Source: an uncultured Dehalococcoidia bacterium (GTDB taxonomy: Bacteria; Chloroflexota; Dehalococcoidia; Lucifugimonadales; CAUZEB01). From it: a DNA stretch of 53,439 bases. Location of the stretch: contig CAYSLK010000012.1 of the NCBI GenBank assembly GCA_964431885.1, positions 1 through 53,439 on the forward strand, in the 5' to 3' direction. Of the stretch, positions 1 to 48,548 are shown piece after piece. Every line of letters starts with the position of its first letter. Position 1 is the stretch's first letter. The notes below the pieces were generated by a model. That model saw only the letters and a program-made list of their open reading frames with translations. It was not told where the DNA came from and ran no database searches. Position numbers and translations under genes: made by a program.

Positions 1-2279
1 CTCCGAAGAAACACTAAGTTTCCTTTATGTTCAGAAACAGCCACATTGTAATTGACTATCCTCGGTAATACCTCAGCCAGTTCGGTTAGTTCATGATAAT
101 GTGTGGCAAATAACGTCTTGCAACCTAACCTAGGGTGATTATGAATGTATTCAGCAACTGATCTGGCTATAGCAAGGCCGTCATATGTACTTGTACCTCT
201 GCCTATTTCATCGAGAACAATCAGAGAGTTTTCCGTGGCATGATTTAAAATACCAGCTGTCTCTATCATTTCCACCATGAAAGTTGATTGTCCTGTCGTA
301 AGATCGTCCTGTAGACCAACACGAGTGAAAATCCTGTCTACTATACCTATAGACGCTGATTCAGCTGGTACAAAACTACCGATTTGAGACAGGAGAACTA
401 TCAATGCGACTTGGCGTATATACGTAGACTTCCCCGCCATATTGGGCCCAGTCAAGATAACAATCTGTTCATTCCGATTAGAAAGTCGAGTGTCATTTGG
501 AACAAAAGAACTCCCATCCAGAACTCGCTCCACTACAGGGTGCCGCCCTTGGTTAATTATCAGATTTTCATCATCATTTACTTCAGGACGAACATATTCA
601 TATCTAGAAGCAGCAAATGCCAACGAACATGAACCGTCAATATGAGCTATAGCCTGTGCTGTATCCATAACGGCAGTGGACATATCTCCTAACTGCTGGC
701 AAATCTGCCGAAACAGCCTATGCTCTACATCTGATATTCGACCCTGTGCATCTAAGATTTGCGATTCGTACTCCTTCATTTCTGGAGTTATATATCTCTC
801 ACCACCGACAAGCGTTTGCCGGCGTATATACTCCTCAGGGACATTGTGAAGATTCGATTTACTAATCTCAATATAGTATCCAAAAACTTTGTTATAACCA
901 ACTTTCAAATTCTTTATTTCAGTTCTCTGGCGTTCCTTCTTTTCCAAACTCGCTATATAATCTTGTGCTTTTCGTGAAGAATTTCTTATGGAATCGAGTT
1001 CCGGTGAAAAGTTTGGCTTAATAACTGTACCTTCTCCAACTATAGCAGATGGGTCATCATTAATTGAGTTCCTAACTAGAAGGACAATTTCTTTATTATC
1101 TCGAATATTTTTATAGAGCCAAGACACGTTTTTATAATCTTCACCATCTTTTAGGACAGACTTCAATTGAGGAGCCATCTCAAGACTACTTGCCAACGAT
1201 AACAAATCTCTCGGATTGGCAGTATGTCCACGGACCTTATTAATCAATCTTTCCAAATCAGCTACATTTTCTAGTATGGAAAATGTCCTGTCACGGCGGA
1301 GTGAACTATTATAAAACCATTGAACAGCATCCAATCTTTTATTGATATCTTTAACATTCAATAACGGTTGACCCAGCCAACGTCTAAGCAATCGACCGCC
1401 CATTGAAGTTTTCGTATTATCAAGCATCGAGAGAAGAGATGATTTTGATGTGCCCCACCGTCCGGCTTCGAAAAGTTCCAGATTATTTATAGTCTGCTGA
1501 TCCAGCTGCATATAATACTCCATAGAGTCCGTATGCAGGTTAGTCAACTGAGTAACTGAACGCTTCTGTGTTCTAGATAGATAATCTATAATACCGCCAG
1601 CAGCACTGATCGCTAAAGGTAACCTCTCACATCCATATGATTCTAGTGATGAAACTCCGAAATGACGTAAAAGTGTTTCGGTTGTCCATTCTAAATTAAA
1701 TGTTTCCGGTTCTATCATGGTAATGTTACCAATGTTATATTGGAGTAGGTTTTGGCATTCCTCCGTCACTAATAATTCAGAGGGCGCTAAACGACTTAAT
1801 TCGATACCCACCCGGGGCAAAGGTAACTGACAGGTTGTAAACTGACTAGTGGTGATGTCAACGTAAGCCAAGCCAGCAAAATCGTCTCTAATGACAACTG
1901 CTGCAAGATAATTGTTAGTTTTTTTATCCAACAACGACTCTTCTACAATAGTGCCAGGAGTGACCACTCGCACGACTTCTCTATCCACAATACCCTTTGA
2001 TGTTGCTGGATCACTTGTTTGTTCACATATTGCGACCTTATGACCATTTCTTATCAAGCGAGCTAAATATCCTTCTAACGAGTGATAGGGGATTCCTGCC
2101 AATGGTACTCTATGTCCAGCACCAAACTCTCGAGATGTGAGTGCTATTTCAAGTTCTCTCGAAATTAACTTCGCATCGTCATCGAAGGTCTCGTAAAAGT
2201 CCCCCATACGAAACAGGAGAATATCGCCCTGATATTCTTTTTTTATTCGCAAATATTGTCTTCTAGCTGGAGTTGTCAT
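1..2279 (-). CDS. mutS: DNA mismatch repair protein MutS, N-terminal ~759 codons (C-terminus lies beyond the left edge)
   Basis: My translation of the minus strand from the ATG at 2279 gives MTTPARRQYLRIKKEYQGDILLFRMGDFYETFDDDA. Walker A GPNMAGKST, STFMVEM and DEIGRGTSTYDG are encoded at about 130-450. The frame at the left edge still reads ...HYHELTELAEVLPRIVNYNVAVSEHKGNLVFLR. No stop-bounded minus ORF is listed here, consistent with one open frame running off the window. Confidence 0.9.
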   Translation of the reverse strand, partial: MTTPARRQYLRIKKEYQGDILLFRMGDFYETFDDDAKLISRELEIALTSREFGAGHRVPLAGIPYHSLEGYLARLIRNGHKVAICEQTSDPATSKGIVDREVVRVVTPGTIVEESLLDKKTNNYLAAVVIRDDFAGLAYVDITTSQFTTCQLPLPRVGIELSRLAPSELLVTEECQNLLQYNIGNITMIEPETFNLEWTTETLLRHFGVSSLESYGCERLPLAISAAGGIIDYLSRTQKRSVTQLTNLHTDSMEYYMQLDQQTINNLELFEAGRWGTSKSSLLSMLDNTKTSMGGRLLRRWLGQPLLNVKDINKRLDAVQWFYNSSLRRDRTFSILENVADLERLINKVRGHTANPRDLLSLASSLEMAPQLKSVLKDGEDYKNVSWLYKNIRDNKEIVLLVRNSINDDPSAIVGEGTVIKPNFSPELDSIRNSSRKAQDYIASLEKKERQRTEIKNLKVGYNKVFGYYIEISKSNLHNVPEEYIRRQTLVGGERYITPEMKEYESQILDAQGRISDVEHRLFRQICQQLGDMSTAVMDTAQAIAHIDGSCSLAFAASRYEYVRPEVNDDENLIINQGRHPVVERVLDGSSFVPNDTRLSNRNEQIVILTGPNMAGKSTYIRQVALIVLLSQIGSFVPAESASIGIVDRIFTRVGLQDDLTTGQSTFMVEMIETAGILNHATENSLIVLDEIGRGTSTYDGLAIARSVAEYIHNHPRLGCKTLFATHYHELTELAEVLPRIVNYNVAVSEHKGNLVFLR

Positions 2280-2323
2280 TCTATCATTTTCTTTGTATTC
2301 TGTGATGAATTCTCTCAGGCTTC

Positions 2324-4411
2324 TTATGGATCGGGAGTCTCTGGCACATAAACAAAATGGGCTGACTTTCTCCATAGATCTATCTTCATCAACTTTAAAT
2401 TCACTATATCGCCAGGAGTGAAGATGATAGGTAGCATAGCTCTTATCCTAAAAGGGTAATTCTCCAACTCCAGAATTGCGGAGCGTCCGGTCTGATGTTC
2501 CAGTACAACTGCTTTAATCAACTCGGATTCTACGTTGGATGGACAAAGAAATGACTTATTCAGATATTTAAGAAACCAATATCTTTTCCTCTCTTCTTCA
2601 ATTCGGGATAAGTCTTTAAGCTGTATTTTAGCTCTATCCATAACCTGAATCATATCTTCCGTTGAGTAAAGAGTTTTCCCTTTCTCTAAAAAGTAACTGA
2701 TTTGTCGTTGCATTACCAGATCAGGATAACGCCTGAGCGGTGAAGTTAGTTGGACATAAGTGGATACCCCTAATCCCATATGAGGGTGCGGGGCGCTATT
2801 CAGCTCAGCAGGCGGCAACCGACGCATCATAAGATACCGTAATAACGGATCTGTTGATACCTTCTTAAGGTCACTGCCATTTACCTCAGAACGATTCGTT
2901 TCATTTAAGCTCTGAGTCCTATAGATTGCCGGAAGACCATTATTATTGCAAAACTCAGCGAGCGTAGAATTATACAGAATCATAAATTCTGCAACCATAT
3001 CTCTAGCTTTAGAGGAACCTACTGACACATCTACATTAACATCGCCTTCTTTTGTTACTTTTATAGTCATTTCAGGTCTATTGAAAGTTAGTCCTCCCTC
3101 AGATTCCCTCTTCTGATGTAATCTTTGAGATAGTCTAAACAGTGCATTAATTATAAAATGCTTAGGGTCTGCACTGTCTGAAATGGCATTTTCTGCATCT
3201 TTATACGAGAGAGAAGACTGGCACATGATAACTGAAGGCATCAATTCCCAATCTAGAATTTCACCATTTTCATCACATTCTAGTATGAGACTAAGGGTAG
3301 CTCTTTTGACGCCTGGAAGAAGACTACCCATATCGTTACCGATTTCTAGCGGTAACATTGGGATGTTTCTTTCCGGTAAATATAAAGTGGCCATCCGAAT
3401 TTGAGCTTCATGATCAATAGCACTATTAGGAGGTACGATCGCTCCTGCATCAGCAATATGTATTCCAAGACGGTACGCAACTGGTGTTTTACCATCTTTT
3501 GAGCTTAGTTCTACGGACAGCGACAGCCCGTCATCCTTATCAATCGAACCTTCATCATCGATTGTGGTTACAGGATATGATGTCAAATCTACTCTTCGGG
3601 GATCCTCTAAAATACTGGTTAAATTTAACGATTGTACTTCAGTAGAGACAATCTCAGGAAAGGTCGTCGAAATTTCAGACCTAGCCAATTCTAACGGTTC
3701 ATCATCTGTCAGCAATTTAGCCTTTACCAAAATTTCGAAACTGAACTTCTGTGGGTCTCGTGTCTCACTATTTACAAGGCCGACTAGTTTACGAACAAAG
3801 TTATTCCTTGCAAAATTCTCACCATCGATAACATAACGTTTAATGTACAGCACTAACTTCTCTTGGTACGGCGTAACATTAGGAGGTAAATTACCGGTCA
3901 CTAAGTAGTTCATAAGCTCAATCTCCATACGTGCGTTTTCGCTCGCGATACTACGTCGTTTCCAAATATTCTCTACATCCTCTTTTGAACGTGCTTTGTA
4001 TTTCTCTCCCTCACTGAAAAAGTACACGATATCAGGATTTTCCAATTGGAAAAGAAGAGCGACTTGTCTAACAGGAACGGGAAGCTCCATGTTCCAATAA
4101 AGTTCGTTGAGCTCCTTCAAGGTAAGTCCACGTTCTTGATCCCTTGTGATCTCCCAAATCTCAGATAAATCTATATTTTTAGATAAAGCTTCACATTCTG
4201 CGGTGAACTTTTCAACTGTGTCAGAATCTCGAGCAACTACTCCAGTCGATAACAATATTCTGCTATGCGGAAGTCTAGCTTCTTTATTACGAGCAGTTAA
4301 TATACGAACTTTCTTTGATTTAGTCGATTTACACAAGCTCTGACGGTCTATGGCTCTCACAACACTAAGCCCACTGCCCAGTCGAGCCACAACGATCTCA
4401 TAAGGTTGCAC
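2324..4411 (-). CDS. rnr: RNase II/R-family 3'-5' exoribonuclease (VacB/RNase R-like), 695 aa
   Basis: The ORF-track product carries RNB-domain signatures IDDEGSIDKDDGLSL and HMGLGVSTYVQLTSPLRRYPDLVMQRQI. It has a GTG start and a TAA stop and lies 44 nt upstream of mutS on the same strand. Confidence 0.85.
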   Translation of the reverse strand: MQPYEIVVARLGSGLSVVRAIDRQSLCKSTKSKKVRILTARNKEARLPHSRILLSTGVVARDSDTVEKFTAECEALSKNIDLSEIWEITRDQERGLTLKELNELYWNMELPVPVRQVALLFQLENPDIVYFFSEGEKYKARSKEDVENIWKRRSIASENARMEIELMNYLVTGNLPPNVTPYQEKLVLYIKRYVIDGENFARNNFVRKLVGLVNSETRDPQKFSFEILVKAKLLTDDEPLELARSEISTTFPEIVSTEVQSLNLTSILEDPRRVDLTSYPVTTIDDEGSIDKDDGLSLSVELSSKDGKTPVAYRLGIHIADAGAIVPPNSAIDHEAQIRMATLYLPERNIPMLPLEIGNDMGSLLPGVKRATLSLILECDENGEILDWELMPSVIMCQSSLSYKDAENAISDSADPKHFIINALFRLSQRLHQKRESEGGLTFNRPEMTIKVTKEGDVNVDVSVGSSKARDMVAEFMILYNSTLAEFCNNNGLPAIYRTQSLNETNRSEVNGSDLKKVSTDPLLRYLMMRRLPPAELNSAPHPHMGLGVSTYVQLTSPLRRYPDLVMQRQISYFLEKGKTLYSTEDMIQVMDRAKIQLKDLSRIEEERKRYWFLKYLNKSFLCPSNVESELIKAVVLEHQTGRSAILELENYPFRIRAMLPIIFTPGDIVNLKLMKIDLWRKSAHFVYVPETPDP

Positions 4412-5437: not shown

Positions 5438-7222
5438 CTAATGTTTGGGAGCAGGGGTTATCTCAGTGTCCAAACTAAGTTGTCCCCGTTCTTTTCTCAT
5501 TAACTCTCTAGTCTTAGCTGTCCTGGCTAAATCTATTACCATAGTCTCAGATTCGACAATCACTCCATAATCCTCTTTTGCCTTACCAAAAGATATCTTT
5601 TCTTGTAAAAGGTCATTTAACACCGCTTCAGGGTCGCGATCAAGCGGGTCTCCATAGCCTCCGGCTCCTGCCTGTATCAGTCTGTAAACATCGTTTTTCT
5701 TCATGTCAAGTAAGAATTTAGAAGGCAGTAATCGATTCTCAGTATCAGGGTTGAGAAAACTATAAGTGCGTGTTCCTGGTTTTCCTCCTTGAGCGCCCCA
5801 TGGCAGAAATTTAGTTCTGTCAGATCGAATCTGTAGGGTCGCTTCTTCTTGTAACAGCTTATATTCACGTATCATACCTAATCCACCACGATGCTTTCCT
5901 GCTCCAGCGGAATCCTGAACATATCCATATTTAGTTATTAGTAAAGGCTGATCGGATTCTATAGTTTCAATATGGGTATTGTCAATATTGGTTATAGGAG
6001 CCGCAGCAACATATTCTCAGTCATCGAATGGAGTGCCTACGCGAGGTCCATCATTATTGAATTCAACAAATACGAAGGGTTTTCCGCCTGGAAAGTATCC
6101 ACCTATGCTAACACCTACTTCGCCACCTCCCCAGGCACCGGGTACTTGATCGGGAAGTGCTCTACTCATAGCTCCAAACACAGCCGAACCTATTCTGAAA
6201 CCCCCAACCCCTCGAGCTGCCACAGGCGCGGGATGTTGAGGATCGACATAACTCCCCGGCTCGGTTATAACTTTTATAGGACGGAAAAACCCAGTATTGC
6301 CCGGTATATTAGGATTAGTAAGACATTTAATTGCTGCATAAGTCGCAGATTTGGTAAAAGCCAAATTTGGATTTATGGAACCTTTCGCCTGAGGAGATGT
6401 GCCAGTGAAATCCACCTCCATTTCATCACCAGTAATTGTTACTTTAACTTTGATAGCTATGGATTCAGGGTTAATACCATCATCATCAATGTAGTCCGTA
6501 AATTCCCAAGAACCATTCGGTAACGATTCAATTTCTGCCCTTGTTAATCTTTCTGTATGGTCGATGATGTCCGTCATATAACCTTTTAGCGGTTCAGGTC
6601 CATACCCCTCAACCAGTCTAAGATAATCCTGTTCACCTTGTCGTAAGGCTGAAACTTGGGCAAGAATATCGCCCAGAACCTTATCAGGCACACGGACATT
6701 CTTAGTAATAATACGCCAGACCGCGCTATTGATTTCGCCTCTATCAAATAATTTAATCGGGGGAATCCTCAATCCTTCTTGATATATTTCAGTATTATCA
6801 CAGGCATTTCCGCCAGCGACCCGACCTCCAATATCTGTATGATGAGCTATCACACAAACCCAACCCATCAGCAATTCGTTATAGAAGACGGGCTTAAAAA
6901 GGAAGATGTCTGGCAAATGACTCGCACCCTCATACGGATCATTATTTGCAAATATATCCTCAGGATTAATATCGTCGCCGAATTGCGCGATTACTGCGTC
7001 TAAGGCCGGTTGCATAGCACCCATATGGAAAGGTAATGTCAGCCCTTGAGCAACCTGTTCTCCATCGGCATTAAAGATGGCAGTTGAAAAATCCATCCCA
7101 TCCTTAACGACTAGAGACCGTGCAGTTCTAACAACCGTAACAGCCATAGTATCAGCGGCACTGGCAAGAGAATTCTTTATTATCTCTCTGGTAACTGGAT
7201 CTAATGTCTGAGACTTACTCAC
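5438..7222 (-). CDS. Hydantoinase B/oxoprolinase-family protein, 594 codons, interrupted only by an in-frame TGA at 6017-6019 (possible Sec, readthrough or nonsense lesion)
   Basis: Track ORFs 6017..7222 and 5438..5875 are in the same frame (1785 nt, divisible by 3). I translated 5876-6016 as EYVAAAPITNIDNTHIETIESDQPLLITKYGYVQDSAGAGKHRGGLG. It is open, joins onto MIREYKLL... and contains the family DSxGAGxxRGGLG motif. The GTG start at 7222 is preceded by GAGG, and the stop is TAG. Confidence 0.8.
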
Positions 7223-7278: not shown

Positions 7279-8652
7279 CTAATTATGTTTTTTTAAAGTT
7301 ATGTTTTTCATTTCATCCAAAGATGTTTGCCATCCAGGAGGTACAACAGTTGTAGAATCATACTCCTCAATAATTAGTGGCCCCGGATTGACGCCATTTG
7401 CTAAATCTAATCTATCAATTACAGGAGTGTCGATCCAGCTATTCGCAGAGACGAAAAATACTTTCCTGGTTTGATTCTTGTGTTCGCGAGGCACGGAGGT
7501 GAATTCTATCCTATCAGGTACTCGCGGAGAGTCCGATATTCCTCTAGCCACTACTCTAATGTTGACTAATTGGTATGGATCCTGAGCACTATATCCATAG
7601 GTTTTCTCATGCTCACGATCGAATTCCACACCCAATGCTTCGACGGAATTAAGATTAAAATAATCATGCTCCATATTTACGGTGAGCTCGGAGGTTTGAC
7701 CAATGTATTTCATGTCAATTTGAGTGATTATCTGATGGTTATCTACGGAGAAGCCTTCTGCAGATAAGAGTCCCTTTCCTTGATTTCTAAGATCATTTAA
7801 TATTGAATTTGCCTCATCCAAATCCAATTCCGAAAATGCCTTAAAATAAGTCCGAACGAAATGATGCTCCACGTCTGCAAACAGGAGTCCAAAAGCACTA
7901 AACACCCCTGGTGAAGGAGGGATTATTATTTGAGTTATGTCAAGCATATCGGCGAGACCGGTTGCATGGATAGGACCTCCTCCTCCAAAGGCCGTTAGAT
8001 CGAATAGACGAGGGTCTCGTCCACGTTCGCTGGACACAGCCCGCAAAGCTCGAGCCATATTTGAATTAACAAGGAGATGGATACCACGAGCAGCTTCAGT
8101 ATCATTCAAACCAAGTGGGCCGCCTATCTTATCAGCAACAGACTGACGGGCTTTCTCTCCATTCAACGGGAATCCTCCGCCTAATAAATGTTGTGGATTA
8201 AGGTATCCCAGCATTACATTTGCATCAGTTACCGTAGGGTCTTCACCGCCATTGTCATAGCAGACCGGACCGGGAACCGCGCCTGCACTATGGGGACCCA
8301 CTTGTAAGGATCCTCCTCTATCCACCCAGGCTATACTTCCTCCACCAGAACTTACTTCAGCTATGTCTATAGCTGGCACTCGAAGTATATATCCGGAACC
8401 TTTGAGAAGCCTATGGCCGGAACTCATCCCTCCGCCAACTTCATAATCAGGAGCTCTAAGCATATCTCCATCCTCTATAATAGAGGCCTTAGCAGTTGTA
8501 CCTCCCATGTCGAACGTCATTAAATTAGGTTTCTCTAACCTTTTCCCTAACTGAAAAGCGCCTACCACACCTGCTGCAGGTCCAGATTCAATGCAATACA
8601 TAGGCTTATCGACTACAACTTCCACTGGAGCTAGTCCACCATTGGATTGCAT
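7279..8652 (-). pseudogene. Hydantoinase A/oxoprolinase-family gene, C-terminal (hydantoinase_A domain) part of a frameshifted reading frame
   Basis: The 457-aa product starts MQSNGGLAPVEVVVDKP, the family's conserved IMQSNGG entry into the ATPase domain. It overlaps the N-terminal fragment in a different frame (9394 and 8652 differ modulo 3). Confidence 0.8.
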
Positions 8653-9367
8653 TATCGTAAGTGGAACCTTGACTCCCTTTTTGCATTTTTATGCTCAGTT
8701 CCGTCAAATATTCCGCTACAACCGGTCTAACATAGGCGTTAATCACGGTAGTACTGGTTCGTTCATATTCCTTCATTTCAGGAAGAAGTTCACTCGAAAT
8801 GGATAAAACCAATTCAGGCATTATCGAATTTAGTCTAGCCACTATTTTTTGCTCGTGATCTGGATTCGCATAAGAATGCATAAGAGATATCGCCACCGAT
8901 CGTATATTTTGCTCCTTTAGAATAGCTGCTATCTTATCAACATCTTCCATTACGATAGGTTGCAGTACTTCACCTTTAAATGTGACCCTTTCTCTAACCT
9001 CGAAGCGAAGTCTTCGTTCCACCAGAGGTGGAGGCTTTTGATAGTACAAATCGTATAGAGTCGGGGTACGTAGCCTAGAAATCTCTAGTACATCTCTAAA
9101 ACCCTCAGTAGTAATTAATGCGGTTCTCTCACCCTTGCCTTCTAAGATAGCGTTAGTCGCCACAGTGAAACCGTGACTCAATTCAGAAATGTTCTCGGGG
9201 CCAATACCGAGCTCTTTAATGCCTTGGGCAAGACCCTCTAAGACCGCACGTCCATAATCGTCTGGAGTACTGGCAACCTTTTTCACTAATACGGTGCCAT
9301 CGTGCCCCAGGAAAACGACATCTGTAAACGTTCCTCCGATATCTGCTCCAGCTCTATATAAATCCAT
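8606..9367 (-). pseudogene. Hydantoinase A/oxoprolinase-family gene, N-terminal (Hydant_A_N) part of the same frameshifted reading frame
   Basis: It encodes MDLYRAGADIGGTFTDVV... (ATG at 9367 preceded by AAGGA; the track ORF extends to 9394). The frame is lost after ...ELSIKMQK at the A5 run (T5 on the plus strand, 8678-8682). Deleting one A restores MQKGVKVPLTIMQSNGGL. Confidence 0.8.
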
Positions 9368-9547
9368 CTTTATATCCTTTTGATAGAAGACCACGCTATG
9401 TTAATTTTAGTACGGGGCAAGCCCGCCAGTGAAGCTCCTAACCGAATTTTTATTAATTAGTTATGAATCTTATCACATGGTTGCTATTTCAATATATTAT
9501 CTCTTACCAAACGTTACATTGACTGCTCTAATCTATTAAATACTTCT

Positions 9548-14702: not shown

Positions 14703-15752
14703 TTATCCCTCACTGTCAAGAAACTTGGCTGGGTTATCTACCAGCATAACTTTTATCTGTTCTTCATTTAACCCAACCGCCTTAAATATGGGTACGACAC
14801 TATCCAACAAATGATCGTATCCAAACCCGCCGTATCTTCTAAGCTGATTTTTCGTACATAGATCCATAGCTAAAACAACCTGATCTAAATAGCCTGCTTC
14901 AATCACCTTAGCAAGGTTTTCAGCTCTTTCATAATCGGTCGGATATACACGACCAGGCCGCTGACGATCTGAGTATTGATAAATATCTGTCTGGCCAAAG
15001 GTGTCAAATCCCAAATATGCACCAGTACTAGCAACTTCCTCAAAATAAGAAAGGTCACACCGAGCATCAAGATCAACGTGACAAAGCACGGTATGCTTTA
15101 AATCAGCCCCTTCTTCTCTTGCAATATCCAAAACTCTAGGTCCGTGCCGACCCCATATGCTATGGTGAATAGAGAGTGGTATTCCCGTACTCGCTTGGGC
15201 TCTGGCCGAACCTCGAAGCACTTTTTCTTCACCCAGAGTGAACGGATCTCCTGTTCCTATCTCTCCAATGATTCCCATACGTATTTCGCTATCATCTACG
15301 CCTACAGTGATCTCCTTAATCAGTCTGTCTGCTATATCGTCGATAGTGCGCTCTTTAAGATACTCTGGGTGGCGTTCTTGCACATAATAACCACCGCCCA
15401 TAATTATGTTTAATCCTGTAGCGGCGGCAATTTCTCGTAAGGCTTTAGGATCCCGTCCTAAACCTGGAGGCGTCTGATCTACAACCGTATCGCCACCCGA
15501 CAACTTAAAACGTTTAATCTCATCAAGAGCTTCTTTTAGATCCAAGCGGTGAGAATTATCCAAGTGGCCATAACCTACCTTTCGCGCCCATCCTATAGTA
15601 TCCATGCGAAGGGGGCTTTCTGCCATCTGACGTATATCTGGGTCATCTGATGGTTTGTAGTGCCATGACCCATCAAAATATATGTGTTCATGAATAGTGG
15701 TGACTCCCAATTCCTTTGCGCTCATTGGCCCCATAACTGTCATAACACTCAT
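14703..15752 (-). CDS. Phosphotriesterase-family (PTER/PHP-like amidohydrolase-fold) protein, 349 aa
   Basis: N-terminal MGPMSAKELGVTTIHEHIYFD contains the HxH metal motif, and the rest of the 349-aa product resembles phosphotriesterase-homology proteins by eye. It is a paralog of 21858..22838. Confidence 0.8.
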   Translation of the reverse strand: MSVMTVMGPMSAKELGVTTIHEHIYFDGSWHYKPSDDPDIRQMAESPLRMDTIGWARKVGYGHLDNSHRLDLKEALDEIKRFKLSGGDTVVDQTPPGLGRDPKALREIAAATGLNIIMGGGYYVQERHPEYLKERTIDDIADRLIKEITVGVDDSEIRMGIIGEIGTGDPFTLGEEKVLRGSARAQASTGIPLSIHHSIWGRHGPRVLDIAREEGADLKHTVLCHVDLDARCDLSYFEEVASTGAYLGFDTFGQTDIYQYSDRQRPGRVYPTDYERAENLAKVIEAGYLDQVVLAMDLCTKNQLRRYGGFGYDHLLDSVVPIFKAVGLNEEQIKVMLVDNPAKFLDSEG

Positions 15753-21857: not shown

Positions 21858-22838
21858 TTGCCAAATGAGATTATGACCGTTACAGGACCAATATCAGCCG
21901 ATGATCTTGGTTTTACACTGGCTCACGAGCATATATTCTTGGATTTAATGCCTGACGCGTGGGTTGGCGGCAATTACATGAATGATCTAGATGTCGCTCA
22001 ACTGGAACTACAACGGTATAAAGACGCAGGTGGTGTTACTTTAGTTGATCAAACTTCTGGGGGTCTGAGGGAAAACGATCATGACCTTCTAATAGACGAA
22101 GACCTCAATCACCTGAAACACGCGGAAGCTATTAAACTGATGGCAGAGAAGACAGGTCTGAATATCATACTGGGTTGCGGATGGTATCGCGAAACGTACT
22201 ACCCGCAAAGACTTTGGAGAATGAAAACTGATGAAATAGCAGAAGAAATGCTGCAGGACCTAACGGAGGGTATCGACGGTACTAATATACGAGCAGGTTT
22301 CATAGGCGAGATAGGTGCTCACTTTAATTGGGTATCAGCAATCGAAGAACGAGTTTTGCGAGCCGCGGCGCGTGCCCAGGTAAAAACTAATGTCGCATTG
22401 GGGACACATGCAACTAGAGGTACTCAAGGACTTGATCAGTTAGATGTACTCGAACAAGAGGGTGTTGACTTACGGAGAGTCGTAGTTGCACACTCAGGGG
22501 GCTTCCCGAGACATAAATACCATGCTGAAATCGCTCGTAGAGGCGCATACATTTCATACGATAGAATGGGCAACCTGAAAAATGCTAACCCCTACGATAA
22601 GAAAAGAACTCTTCAACACATAAAGAAGATTATCGACGCAGGCTTAATCAACAATCTGATTTTCTCTCACGACGTTTGCTACACTCACGACTGGCATACT
22701 TACGGGGGTTCCGGTTATGACTTCCTGTCTACAGAGGCTCTTCCTATGTTAAAGGAGGAAATTGGAATGACTGAAGAACAATTTAATACGATTATGTTGG
22801 GGAATTCACGACGCCTTTTAACTGGAGAAGGATTATAA
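21858..22838 (+). CDS. Phosphotriesterase-family (PTER/PHP-like) protein, 326 aa
   Basis: VTGPISADDLGFTLAHEHIFLD contains the HxH motif, and the rest of the product resembles PTER-family proteins by eye. The TTG start is preceded by AAGGAG. It is a paralog of 14703..15752. Confidence 0.8.
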   Translation: MPNEIMTVTGPISADDLGFTLAHEHIFLDLMPDAWVGGNYMNDLDVAQLELQRYKDAGGVTLVDQTSGGLRENDHDLLIDEDLNHLKHAEAIKLMAEKTGLNIILGCGWYRETYYPQRLWRMKTDEIAEEMLQDLTEGIDGTNIRAGFIGEIGAHFNWVSAIEERVLRAAARAQVKTNVALGTHATRGTQGLDQLDVLEQEGVDLRRVVVAHSGGFPRHKYHAEIARRGAYISYDRMGNLKNANPYDKKRTLQHIKKIIDAGLINNLIFSHDVCYTHDWHTYGGSGYDFLSTEALPMLKEEIGMTEEQFNTIMLGNSRRLLTGEGL

Positions 22839-33616: not shown

Positions 33617-33886
33617 CTGGTCGTGCTAGGTGGGGAGATAGCGGTGCCCTATACTCGCAATCCGCTCTAGCGAGACTTAACTCCTCCCGGAGGTTTTTTT
33701 TCAGATCCTCTTTCCATGAAGGCCTGTGTTGAAAATCAGATCCTACGCGGCGGTAACCTGTGAATCCCGTCAGGTCCGGAAGGAAGCAGCGGTAAACAGT
33801 TATTCCGGGTGCCGTAGGCCAAACTGGTTTGAGCAGCTTTCACGAGATATGTCTCTGAAAAGAATCGAACGGAGGTGCACGACCTG
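33617..33886 (+). ncRNA. ffs: Signal recognition particle RNA, long (Bacillus-type, Alu-domain-containing) form, ~270 nt
   Basis: The domain IV core GUCAGGUCCGGAAGGAAGCAGCGGUAA lies at about 33770-33795. The 5' Alu-domain sequence GGUCGUGCUAGGUGGGGAGAUAGCGGUGCCCUAUACUCGCAAUCCGCUCUAGCGAG closely parallels my recollection of B. subtilis scRNA. The 5' GGUCGUGC pairs with the 3' GCACGACC (33877-33884). The ends are approximate. Confidence 0.85.
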
Positions 33887-42360: not shown

Positions 42361-42437
42361 CGGGGAGTGGCGCAGTTTGGAAGCGCACCTGCATGGGGTG
42401 CAGGGGGTCGCTGGTTCAAATCCAGTCTCCCCGACCA
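42361..42437 (+). tRNA. tRNA-Pro, anticodon GGG, with encoded CCA
   Basis: I folded it by hand. Acceptor stem CGGGGAG/CTCCCCG, D stem GCGC/GCGC, anticodon stem CCTGC/GCAGG with loop AT-GGG-GT (G37), T arm GCTGG-TTCAAAT-CCAGT, discriminator A, then CCA. Total 77 nt. Confidence 0.93.
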
Positions 42438-47999: not shown

Positions 48000-48347
48000 C
48001 TATTCGAGGATTTGCCGTATGCCTTTCAAGTCCGCTCCAATAATTATTTTCTCTCTATAGTAAACTATAGGCCGCCTGATCAACCTTGGTTCCTTAAGCA
48101 TAAGGGGCAACAAATCTTCGTCTGTCAAATGAGCTTTGGAAACGTTCAGTTTCTTAAAAGAAGGACTCCGCCAAGAGAATATTTCGCTTGGACTAATTAT
48201 TTCTAATAATTCTGTCAGTTCATCTTCTGTAAAACGTTCTTTGAAAAAGTCCCTCTCTATTACACAGATCTCGTGTTGTGACAGCAACGCTCTCACTTTC
48301 TTGCATGAGCTTCATTTATTCCAGGTGTAAAAATGCGCTACAGGCAT
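48000..48347 (-). CDS. Spx/ArsC/YffB-family thioredoxin-fold protein, probable selenoprotein with a UxxC motif (Sec at codon 12, TGA 48312-48314), 115 aa
   Basis: The track ORF 48000..48296 starts at an internal GTG. The same frame continues upstream as MPVAHFYTWNK-[TGA]-SSCKKVRALL from the ATG at 48347, which is preceded by AAGGAG plus 6 nt. FYTWNKUSSCKKVRALLSQHEI aligns with Spx [22 protein letters not shown], placing the UGA on Cys10 of CxxC. WRSPSFKKL and RRPIV motifs are also conserved. A SECIS-like hairpin lies downstream. Confidence 0.75.
48278..48296 (-). promoter_or_regulatory. SECIS-like hairpin in the Spx/ArsC-like mRNA
   Basis: The mRNA reads GUGAGAGC-GUU-GCUGUCAC: eight stem positions with seven Watson-Crick pairs and one G-G mismatch. 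The loop starts with G, and its first nucleotide is 24 nt after the UGA (23 nt intervene). Confidence 0.5.
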
Positions 48348-48387
48348 ATAAAACTCCTTCCTGTCCTATGAAACATATTCACTCATA

Positions 48388-48403
48388 AATCACATTCGTG
48401 ATT
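48388..48403. promoter_or_regulatory. Inverted repeat AATCAC-ATTC-GTGATT upstream of the Spx/ArsC-like gene
   Basis: Read directly: 6-bp arms with a 4-nt spacer, about 40-55 nt upstream of the ATG at 48347. Confidence 0.3.
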
Positions 48404-48548
48404 GCCTATATCGAAATTTGAAAGAAGTATTCATTATAGGTAGGATTTGTATAGCCACGAAGCATAAATCGCTAAGAAAACCAAACTGTCCATTACACAC
48501 GTTCTCTATGTTTAGGTCTAATCATGATTCTTTGCAAACAATAACTTT

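Follow-up and report, generated by a model that had tools for sequence, protein, structure and literature searches.

We describe a minus-strand gene in a 53,439-nucleotide (nt) contig (CAYSLK010000012.1, assembly GCA_964431885.1; this whole stretch is referred to below as the window) from an uncultured Dehalococcoidia bacterium of the phylum Chloroflexota. Comparative sequence analysis indicates that an in-frame UGA codon of this gene is very probably recoded as selenocysteine (Sec), with a Sec insertion sequence (SECIS) hairpin shortly downstream, and that the product is a small UxxC protein of the ArsC/Spx superfamily; we assign a probability of about 0.85 to the recoding and the superfamily assignment taken together. 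An initial annotation of the window had proposed that this site encodes a UxxC selenoprotein of the ArsC/Spx family equipped with a SECIS element, and the proposal is strongly supported by a TGA in 79 of 79 related loci, by sequence constraint upstream of that codon, by a covarying hairpin, and by the existence of Cys homologues. The gene is an additional member of a family that has been catalogued since 2008, its Spx-like assignment included.

On direct reading, the minus-strand frame runs from ATG 48347 to TAG 48000, with TGA 48314-48312 as its sole interruption. The restored product begins MPVAHFYTWNK-U-SSCKKVRALLSQHEI..., which places the active-site motif at U12-S-S-C15. The mechanically called open reading frame (ORF) on the same strand covers 48000..48296, begins at a GTG, and encodes 98 amino acids (aa); this GTG is not preceded by a Shine-Dalgarno sequence and is located inside the hairpin. 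TGA serves as the ordinary stop codon of 7 of the 37 long ORFs in the window, so the genetic code is the standard one and the recoding is specific to this site. The coordinates proposed in the initial annotation, including the ORF, the ATG, the AAGGAG motif followed by 6 nt, the TGA, and the hairpin, all proved correct (Table 1).

Relatives of the gene were collected in a genome scan that used one genome per species, in which the tblastn matches continue across the TGA. A relative was present in 321 genomes, and the best 80 of these 321 matches, which derive from Dehalococcoidia/SAR202/Chloroflexota and from Smithella/Syntrophales, were analysed as loci. Wherever the motif could be placed, TGA occupied the Cys column (79/79), and neither TAA nor TAG was found there in any locus. 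Across the family, the frame upstream of the TGA can be followed back to its start codon, an ATG in 70 of 78, and the residues around the TGA conform to the pattern [FLY]-[YF]-x-W-x-[RK]-U-x-x-C-[RK], in which position -3 is always Trp and position -1 is Arg or Lys. Mean entropy over the eight codons 5' of the TGA rises from 0.79 and 0.93 at codon positions 1 and 2 to 1.46 at position 3, a coding signature for a segment that gene callers omit. Furthermore, a sequencing error is ruled out by six independent assemblies from different samples, all of which carry the window's gene with that same TGA. The observations named in the initial annotation as speaking against Sec include orthologues devoid of the N-terminus and CxxC motif, and a TGC or TGT variant at 48312-48314; what was found is an upstream frame and start codon kept by the orthologues, and TGA in every one of the six assemblies.

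A protein database search returned 663 relatives; among the best 120 of them, 100 are N-terminally truncated and begin just past the CxxC column, 17 are full-length CxxC proteins, and 3 are full-length proteins with Trp at that column (P0009, P0015, and P0016). The DNA of P0009 (locus L088) and P0015 (locus L087) carries TGA followed by the hairpin, and the gene caller had therefore translated these contigs with a code in which UGA is read as Trp. Cys forms, for which the initial annotation had advised looking among the orthologues, are thus represented by those 17 proteins, and the six Cys homologues examined at the DNA level have TGC or TGT at the Sec column. One of the CxxC proteins, P0005 from SAR202, is 52% identical to the window protein and follows the same run of cyclase, S6, SSB, S18, and SurA-like genes; it is therefore a positional Cys orthologue. 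The closest relative of the window gene among the best 80 loci is found in a Dehalococcoidia metagenome-assembled genome (L001, 74% identical). Sec capacity in these lineages is supported indirectly: a further orthologue (L045) belongs to Dehalococcoidia bacterium UBA1141, which is entered in BSepDB with 49 selenoproteins, and Syntrophales are known to be selenoprotein-rich. The Sec form is dominant in Dehalococcoidia/SAR202 and Syntrophales.

The hairpin, GTGAGAGC-GTT-GCTGTCAC, lies at 48296-48278, and its loop begins at the 24th nt past the UGA. Its stem of 8 positions comprises 7 pairs (4+3) and one G.G mismatch, with a free energy of -9.0 kcal/mol when folded as a 25-nt piece. The published model of the bacterial SECIS (bSECIS) requires an apical loop of 3-9 nt, an upper stem of 4-16 bp, a G in the first two loop positions, a UGA-to-loop spacing of 16-37 nt, and a minimum free energy of no more than -7.5 kcal/mol (PMC13188914). 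The window element fits this model, having a 3-nt loop, an 8-position stem, a loop that starts with G and then U, a spacing of 23 nt, and the energy given above. The SECIS-like hairpin of the initial annotation is thereby confirmed in position, agrees with the bSECIS description, and covaries within the family. Rfam returned no SECIS family match, either in the whole window at gathering thresholds or in 48150-48420 at E <= 10, as expected given that bacterial SECIS elements are poorly modelled.

Covariation was evaluated on a gap-free alignment of the 51 nt that follow the UGA in 76 distinct sequences, where the helix occupies columns 19-26 and 30-37. Standard pairs fill 92.1% of the helix cells, compared with 35-64% when the 3' partner is slid by 1-3 columns, and 83 cells are changed on both sides, compared with 1-18 in the slid controls. 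The covariation score of 0.42 (slid controls, <=0.17) was reached by none of 500 shuffles, and RNAalifold recovered the same helix independently. The compensatory changes involve whole codons: GUG, GCG, and GUA of Val/Ala pair with UCA, UCG, and UUA, respectively, of Ser/Leu, and Leu is encoded by CUC opposite Arg AGR but by CUU opposite Lys AAR. Covariation thus ties amino-acid-changing positions to synonymous ones. Additionally, the loop G (column 27) is invariant despite being a third codon position, and only the codons GAG, GCG, GUG, and GGG occur there. Over 75 Sec forms, the hairpin has an average energy of -9.67 kcal/mol, whereas 5 of the 6 Cys forms have no hairpin (-0.4 to -4.1 kcal/mol). 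The exception is locus L092 (protein P0006, gene 301-651), which has TGC at the Sec column yet a perfect SECIS hairpin of -10.1 kcal/mol. Its sequence is nearly identical to those of the TGA forms L072 and L087; apparently, Sec was replaced by Cys here very recently, unless the TGC is a base-call variant.

Table 1. Coordinates of the putative selenoprotein gene and its elements in the window
Feature	Position	Strand	Basis and remarks
Shine-Dalgarno sequence AAGGAG	48354..48359	-	Direct sequence reading; 6-nt spacer TTTTAT before ATG
True start codon ATG	48345..48347	-	Sequence; ATG also in 70/78 orthologues, 8-16 codons 5' of TGA
Full coding sequence (CDS), ArsC/Spx-fold, U12-x-x-C15	48000..48347	-	Translation; 115 residues + TAG stop (116 codons including stop)
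N-terminal segment, codons 2-11 PVAHFYTWNK, first beta strand	48315..48344	-	Omitted by gene callers; family conservation
In-frame UGA, probable selenocysteine residue 12, first position of UxxC	48312..48314	-	Comparative evidence
TGC codon, Cys15, probable resolving cysteine of UxxC	48303..48305	-	T10-G11 invariant in alignment; Cys in 78/78 members
Putative bacterial SECIS hairpin GUGAGAGC-GUU-GCUGUCAC within CDS	48278..48296	-	Onset 15 nt after UGA; covariation
Stop codon TAG	48002-48000	-	Sequence

The family to which the protein belongs was examined by profile searches, in which Cys was put in place of the UGA, and by fold searches. Pfam ArsC (PF03960) matches with E = 5.5e-17. The best NCBIfam match is the Spx/MgsR family TIGR01617, which is narrowly missed (72.3 bits against a cut-off of 75.05), and six relatives score 58.4-72.4 bits with this model, all under its cut-off. 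Other models are further from their thresholds, including Spx PRK01655 (70.8 bits, cut-off 123), arsC TIGR00014 (41.4 bits, cut-off 106), and the 'ArsC family (seleno)protein' NF041106 (35.7 bits, cut-off 85; five relatives at 28-36 bits). By sequence, the nearest solved structures are those of Spx (HMMER against the Protein Data Bank, PDB, E = 5e-18), and ArsC-type proteins follow from E = 1e-6; the residue-for-residue alignment with Bacillus subtilis Spx given in the initial annotation was reproduced in this search. The AlphaFold model of P0005 has a predicted local distance difference test (pLDDT) score of 93.6, and Foldseek placed Spx at the top of its matches (template modelling, TM, score 0.86-0.87), with YffB and ArsC structures at 0.84-0.87. 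Structure comparison was also tried as a means of discriminating among Spx, ArsC, and YffB; it confirmed the fold and was discarded for that purpose, since all three match about equally. Thus, the fold is of the generic ArsC/Spx type and the sequence is nearest to Spx, and the initial annotation was correct in placing the protein nearest to the Spx branch, as NCBIfam scores, PDB matches, and Foldseek all show. Members of the family are 113-123 aa long and end near Spx residue 116. A conserved active site is suggested by their invariant residues: R32-D33-F-F, S61-P62-S63, K65, E86-P-R-L, and R91-R92-P93.

Selenoproteins of this kind have been listed before. The Global Ocean Sampling (GOS) selenoproteome includes, in its Table 2, 'Arsenate reductase 2, cd03032, UxxC', with 42 Sec sequences from 21 samples and 238 Cys homologues (Zhang & Gladyshev 2008, PMC2398784), and cd03032 is the ArsC_Spx subfamily (PMC8755942). 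The best Spx-model matches and the UxxC motif suggest that the window protein is itself a member of cd03032. In later reviews the family is named 'arsenate reductase-like protein, UxxC', and a 2026 review maps it to NF041106 only (PMC13188914). Supplementary file 3 of the GOS study contains two close relatives, JCVI_READ_1318105 (45% identical over 105 residues, E = 1e-35) and JCVI_READ_1095390070075 (50% identical over 90 residues, E = 1e-30). In both cases the similarity spans the full length of the window protein. The two reads show the motifs YTWNKUSTCKK, ERDFF, RSPSFKKLNV, and EPRLIRRP, which in JCVI_READ_1318105 take the form YYTWNKUSTCKK...ERDIF...RSPSVKK...EPRLIRRP, and the Spx-like GOS reads share the NCBIfam profile of the window protein, with TIGR01617 best at 70.6 bits and NF041106 at 28 bits. 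The same list holds a second type: JCVI_READ_17177 (WYYMRGGUTTC...GNMRAPT) scores 116 bits with NF041106. The GOS 'Arsenate reductase 2 UxxC' list therefore mixes two ArsC-superfamily subtypes, an NF041106 type with the motifs WYY.R..UTTC...GN.RAPT and a Spx-like type with YTW.KU.TC...ERDFF...EPRLIRRP. NF041106 (ArsC_rel_Se_1) proteins are, like the window protein, small UxxC members of the ArsC superfamily from similar marine and anaerobic settings; by its NF041106 score, however, the window protein belongs to a different subfamily, and the conserved motifs differ as well (ERDFF, SPSFK, and EPRLIRRP in its own subfamily, GNxRAPT in NF041106). The accession given as an example in the review, MAM02162.1, was not found by cluster look-up, and the identity of the family rests on the GOS supplement. 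The statement in the initial annotation that ArsC-like selenoproteins occur in marine metagenomes is borne out by the GOS list, whereas the Spx-like UxxC type cannot be regarded as new, as it is already present in Table 2 and the supplement of that study. The Spx-like subtype, including all Dehalococcoidia and Smithella members tested, falls under the cut-offs of both TIGR01617 and NF041106 and has no model of its own, which is why its members appear in GenBank as 98-aa 'hypothetical proteins'.

With respect to genomic context, the order in the window is cyclase, S6, SSB, S18, SurA-like protein, homoserine dehydrogenase, and the selenoprotein gene, followed by a short-chain dehydrogenase/reductase gene on the opposite strand. 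Over the 80 loci, the recurrent neighbours are mutS, mutL, and rpsF-ssb-rpsR, a synteny that is lineage-specific only, and the ars genes sought (arsR, arsB/acr3, arsA, and arsM) are not recurrent among the neighbours. Within approximately 3 kb upstream and 1 kb downstream of the gene in loci L003-L080, mutS and mutL flank it on either side in about 23 Dehalococcoidia genomes; the mutS of the window is located at its left end (3-2399, minus strand), 46 kb from the selenoprotein gene. A tRNA-Pro(GGG) at 42361-42437 (+) is found about 5.8 kb from the gene and likewise in L001, which supports synteny with that locus. The window also contains a bacterial signal recognition particle RNA of the large type at 33621-33882 (+) (Rfam RF01854, 178.6 bits). 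Two genes of the phosphotriesterase family (PF02126), at 14703-15752 (-) and 21858-22838 (+), lie within 7 kb of each other amid amidohydrolase, gamma-glutamyltranspeptidase, CoA-transferase, and enolase-superfamily genes, a catabolic set unrelated to the selenoprotein.

Another in-frame TGA of the window was considered as the site of a second selenoprotein and rejected. The hyuB gene (Hydantoinase_B, hydantoinase B/oxoprolinase; 5438-7222, minus strand) consists of two same-frame ORFs split by TGA 6019-6017. In 48 of 57 homologues the corresponding column is Gly, not Cys; conserved positions nearby have diverged, the TGA is not followed by a stable hairpin, and hyuA is frameshifted. For these reasons Sec is not assigned there, and the codon seems to reflect a nonsense mutation (GGA to TGA) in a possible pseudogene, or else faulty assembly. 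The adjoining hyuA (7279-9394, minus strand) is represented by two ORFs in different frames that overlap at 8606-8652, the one with Hydant_A_N and the other with Hydantoinase_A from profile position 38. Taken together, the hyuA frameshift and the hyuB stop suggest that the hyuAB operon is decaying or that the sequence contains local errors.

Several observations weigh against a Sec-containing enzyme as the product of the window gene. The 53-kb window contains no tRNA-Sec according to ARAGORN, which reported tRNA-Pro only, and a Pfam scan of 39 of its ORFs did not find SelA, SelB, or SelD; the flanks of 60 related loci are likewise devoid of tRNA-Sec, and a motif scan of TGA-interrupted ORFs with Cys/Ser/Thr context revealed no second selenoprotein gene in the window. 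The 66-nt fold of the window sequence is no better than that of its shuffles (z = -0.97), its stem carries the G.G mismatch, and the significance of the hairpin therefore comes from the comparative data. No conserved operon partner hints at a substrate, and no single neighbour is shared by over 23 of the 80 loci. As for function, the choice of an enzyme over a regulator is inferred from the Spx features that are missing and from the general location of Sec in catalytic sites. The literature searched contains no protein-level evidence, including selenium labelling and mass spectrometry, for any member of the family, whose functions 'remain largely uncharacterized' (PMC13188914).

Some of these observations would be accommodated if the UGA were a plain stop or an error, leaving a pseudogene or a 98-residue product from GTG 48296 without CxxC, or if readthrough without Sec machinery placed Trp, Cys, or Gly there. 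Gene callers do pick the 98-aa ORF, some of them translate the TGA as Trp (P0009, P0015, and P0016), the window shows no Sec machinery, and a genuine nonsense TGA does appear to be present nearby in hyuB. We nevertheless regard such explanations as extremely improbable, because all 79 placeable loci, across two phyla, use TGA at this codon and none has TAA or TAG, with upstream frame and start conserved, and because the six assemblies agree on it. The truncated product would be deprived of the active site and of beta-strand 1, parts of a fold that is predicted with high confidence, its GTG has neither a Shine-Dalgarno sequence nor a position outside the hairpin, TGA is a normal stop elsewhere in the window, and a dedicated covarying hairpin would be left without a role. 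Under Sec decoding, translation would begin at ATG 48347, and when the ribosome arrives at UGA 48314-48312 the hairpin at 48296-48278, 15 nt past this codon, would act as a bacterial SECIS and recruit SelB-GTP-Sec-tRNA(Sec); as the comparative pattern implies, Sec would then be inserted at residue 12 in place of termination. In the product, Sec12 may attack an oxidised substrate and Cys15 may resolve the adduct to yield an intramolecular U12-C15 selenenylsulfide, which the thioredoxin system could re-reduce.

Such a cycle would make the protein a catalytic selenol/thiol-disulfide oxidoreductase, to which we give roughly even odds on the basis of sequence patterns, and which we consider likelier than either a transcription factor of the Spx type or an enzyme dedicated to arsenate reduction, since Sec is typically catalytic, the invariant residues fall in motifs of the active-site region, and the contacts specific to Spx are missing. 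The regulatory alternative, advanced in the initial annotation as a selenium-based Spx-type switch, holds that U12-C15 controls binding to the alpha-subunit C-terminal domain (alpha-CTD) of RNA polymerase and thereby thiol-stress genes, as Spx does in Firmicutes. It can draw on TIGR01617 as the best NCBIfam match, on Spx as the best solved relative by E-value and the top Foldseek hit, and on a gene that stands alone in a housekeeping context, as that of a regulator might. In comparison with B. subtilis Spx (PDB 1Z3E, 3GFK, and 6GHB), C10xxC13 is aligned with U12xxC15 of the family, with Sec in place of Cys10. All 78 restored members keep C10 (as U), C13, R30, F33, S61, and R91-R92-P93; R60, S61, F64, K66, and L-x-R91-R92-P93 are shared, the S-x-R-S..F.K region of helix alpha4 is conserved, and R60 is mostly kept (57 R, 12 K, and 7 N; R or K in 69/78). 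In Spx, however, Gly52 contributes to the alpha-CTD contact and activation requires R60 and K62 (PMC2801614), whereas in all 78 members Asp51-Gly52 falls within a two-residue deletion and Lys62 is an invariant Pro. Unlike the 131-aa Spx, the family is devoid of the C-terminal tail of about 15 residues, and it occurs in Chloroflexota and Desulfobacterota, unlike Spx of Firmicutes. The claim of 'an Spx' is lowered accordingly by the deletion, the Pro, and the absent tail; all tested members remain under the TIGR01617 cut-off (58-72 against 75.05), ArsC and YffB structures fit the model almost equally, and we know of no Sec-based transcription factor. The rpoA gene is not within the window. By sequence, the family is Spx-like and not bona fide Spx, and a Spx-type RNA polymerase switch is not supported and is unlikely. 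A true arsenate reductase, in which Sec12 would stand in for the catalytic Cys12 of the glutaredoxin-coupled enzyme ArsC, with Cys15 as an internal resolving thiol, is in our judgement less probable again, and very unlikely. The Pfam ArsC domain, the name 'Arsenate reductase 2' chosen by the GOS authors, an invariant Arg matching the ArsC RP motif, and the presence of Arg or Lys at residue 60 in most members speak for it. As in ArsC (R773/Escherichia coli, PDB 1I9D) and in the UxxS 'Arsenate reductase 1', the nucleophilic Cys or Sec is at the same N-terminal position, and the fold is shared (TM about 0.84). Unlike these proteins, however, the family has UxxC instead of CxxS or UxxS and no ars operon context: the 80 loci offer a housekeeping setting (rpsF-ssb-rpsR-surA-like, hom, mutS/mutL), TIGR00014 is missed by a wide interval (41.4 against 106), and residue 60 varies among R, K, and N. 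In R773 ArsC the catalytic Arg triad is R60, R94, and R107; in the family, residue 60 is thus variable and the R-P motif arginine invariant. A CxxC/UxxC dithiol is characteristic of Spx-like and ArsC-like subfamilies, whereas ArsC of the R773 type uses a single Cys. It is also conceivable, though distinctly unlikely and intermediate between those two alternatives, that the family, with its universal or almost universal presence in SAR202/Dehalococcoidia and Syntrophales, is a selenium-dependent Spx relative in which U12-C15 senses oxidants and a non-Firmicute interface contacts RNA polymerase or another partner; if true, it would be the first regulatory redox switch to use selenocysteine.

As a probable UGA-decoded selenoprotein of the ArsC/Spx superfamily, the window gene is biologically nothing categorically new, because ArsC/Spx-fold UxxC selenoproteins have been known since 2008. 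It is a clean case of a selenoprotein shortened by automated annotation, as 100 of the best 120 relatives are cut at the UGA; a GenBank example is MCH8109976.1, a 98-aa 'hypothetical protein'. No NCBIfam model reaches its cut-off for any family member tested, and the only published listing mixes the subtypes. With covariation that couples synonymous and non-synonymous codon positions, the SECIS alignment would serve well as training material. The outcome therefore comprises an annotation correction, the recognition of two subtypes, and a SECIS covariation data set. SAR202 is an abundant deep-ocean lineage, and a separate model for the Spx-like subtype would correct several hundred annotations in Dehalococcoidia/SAR202 and Syntrophales.

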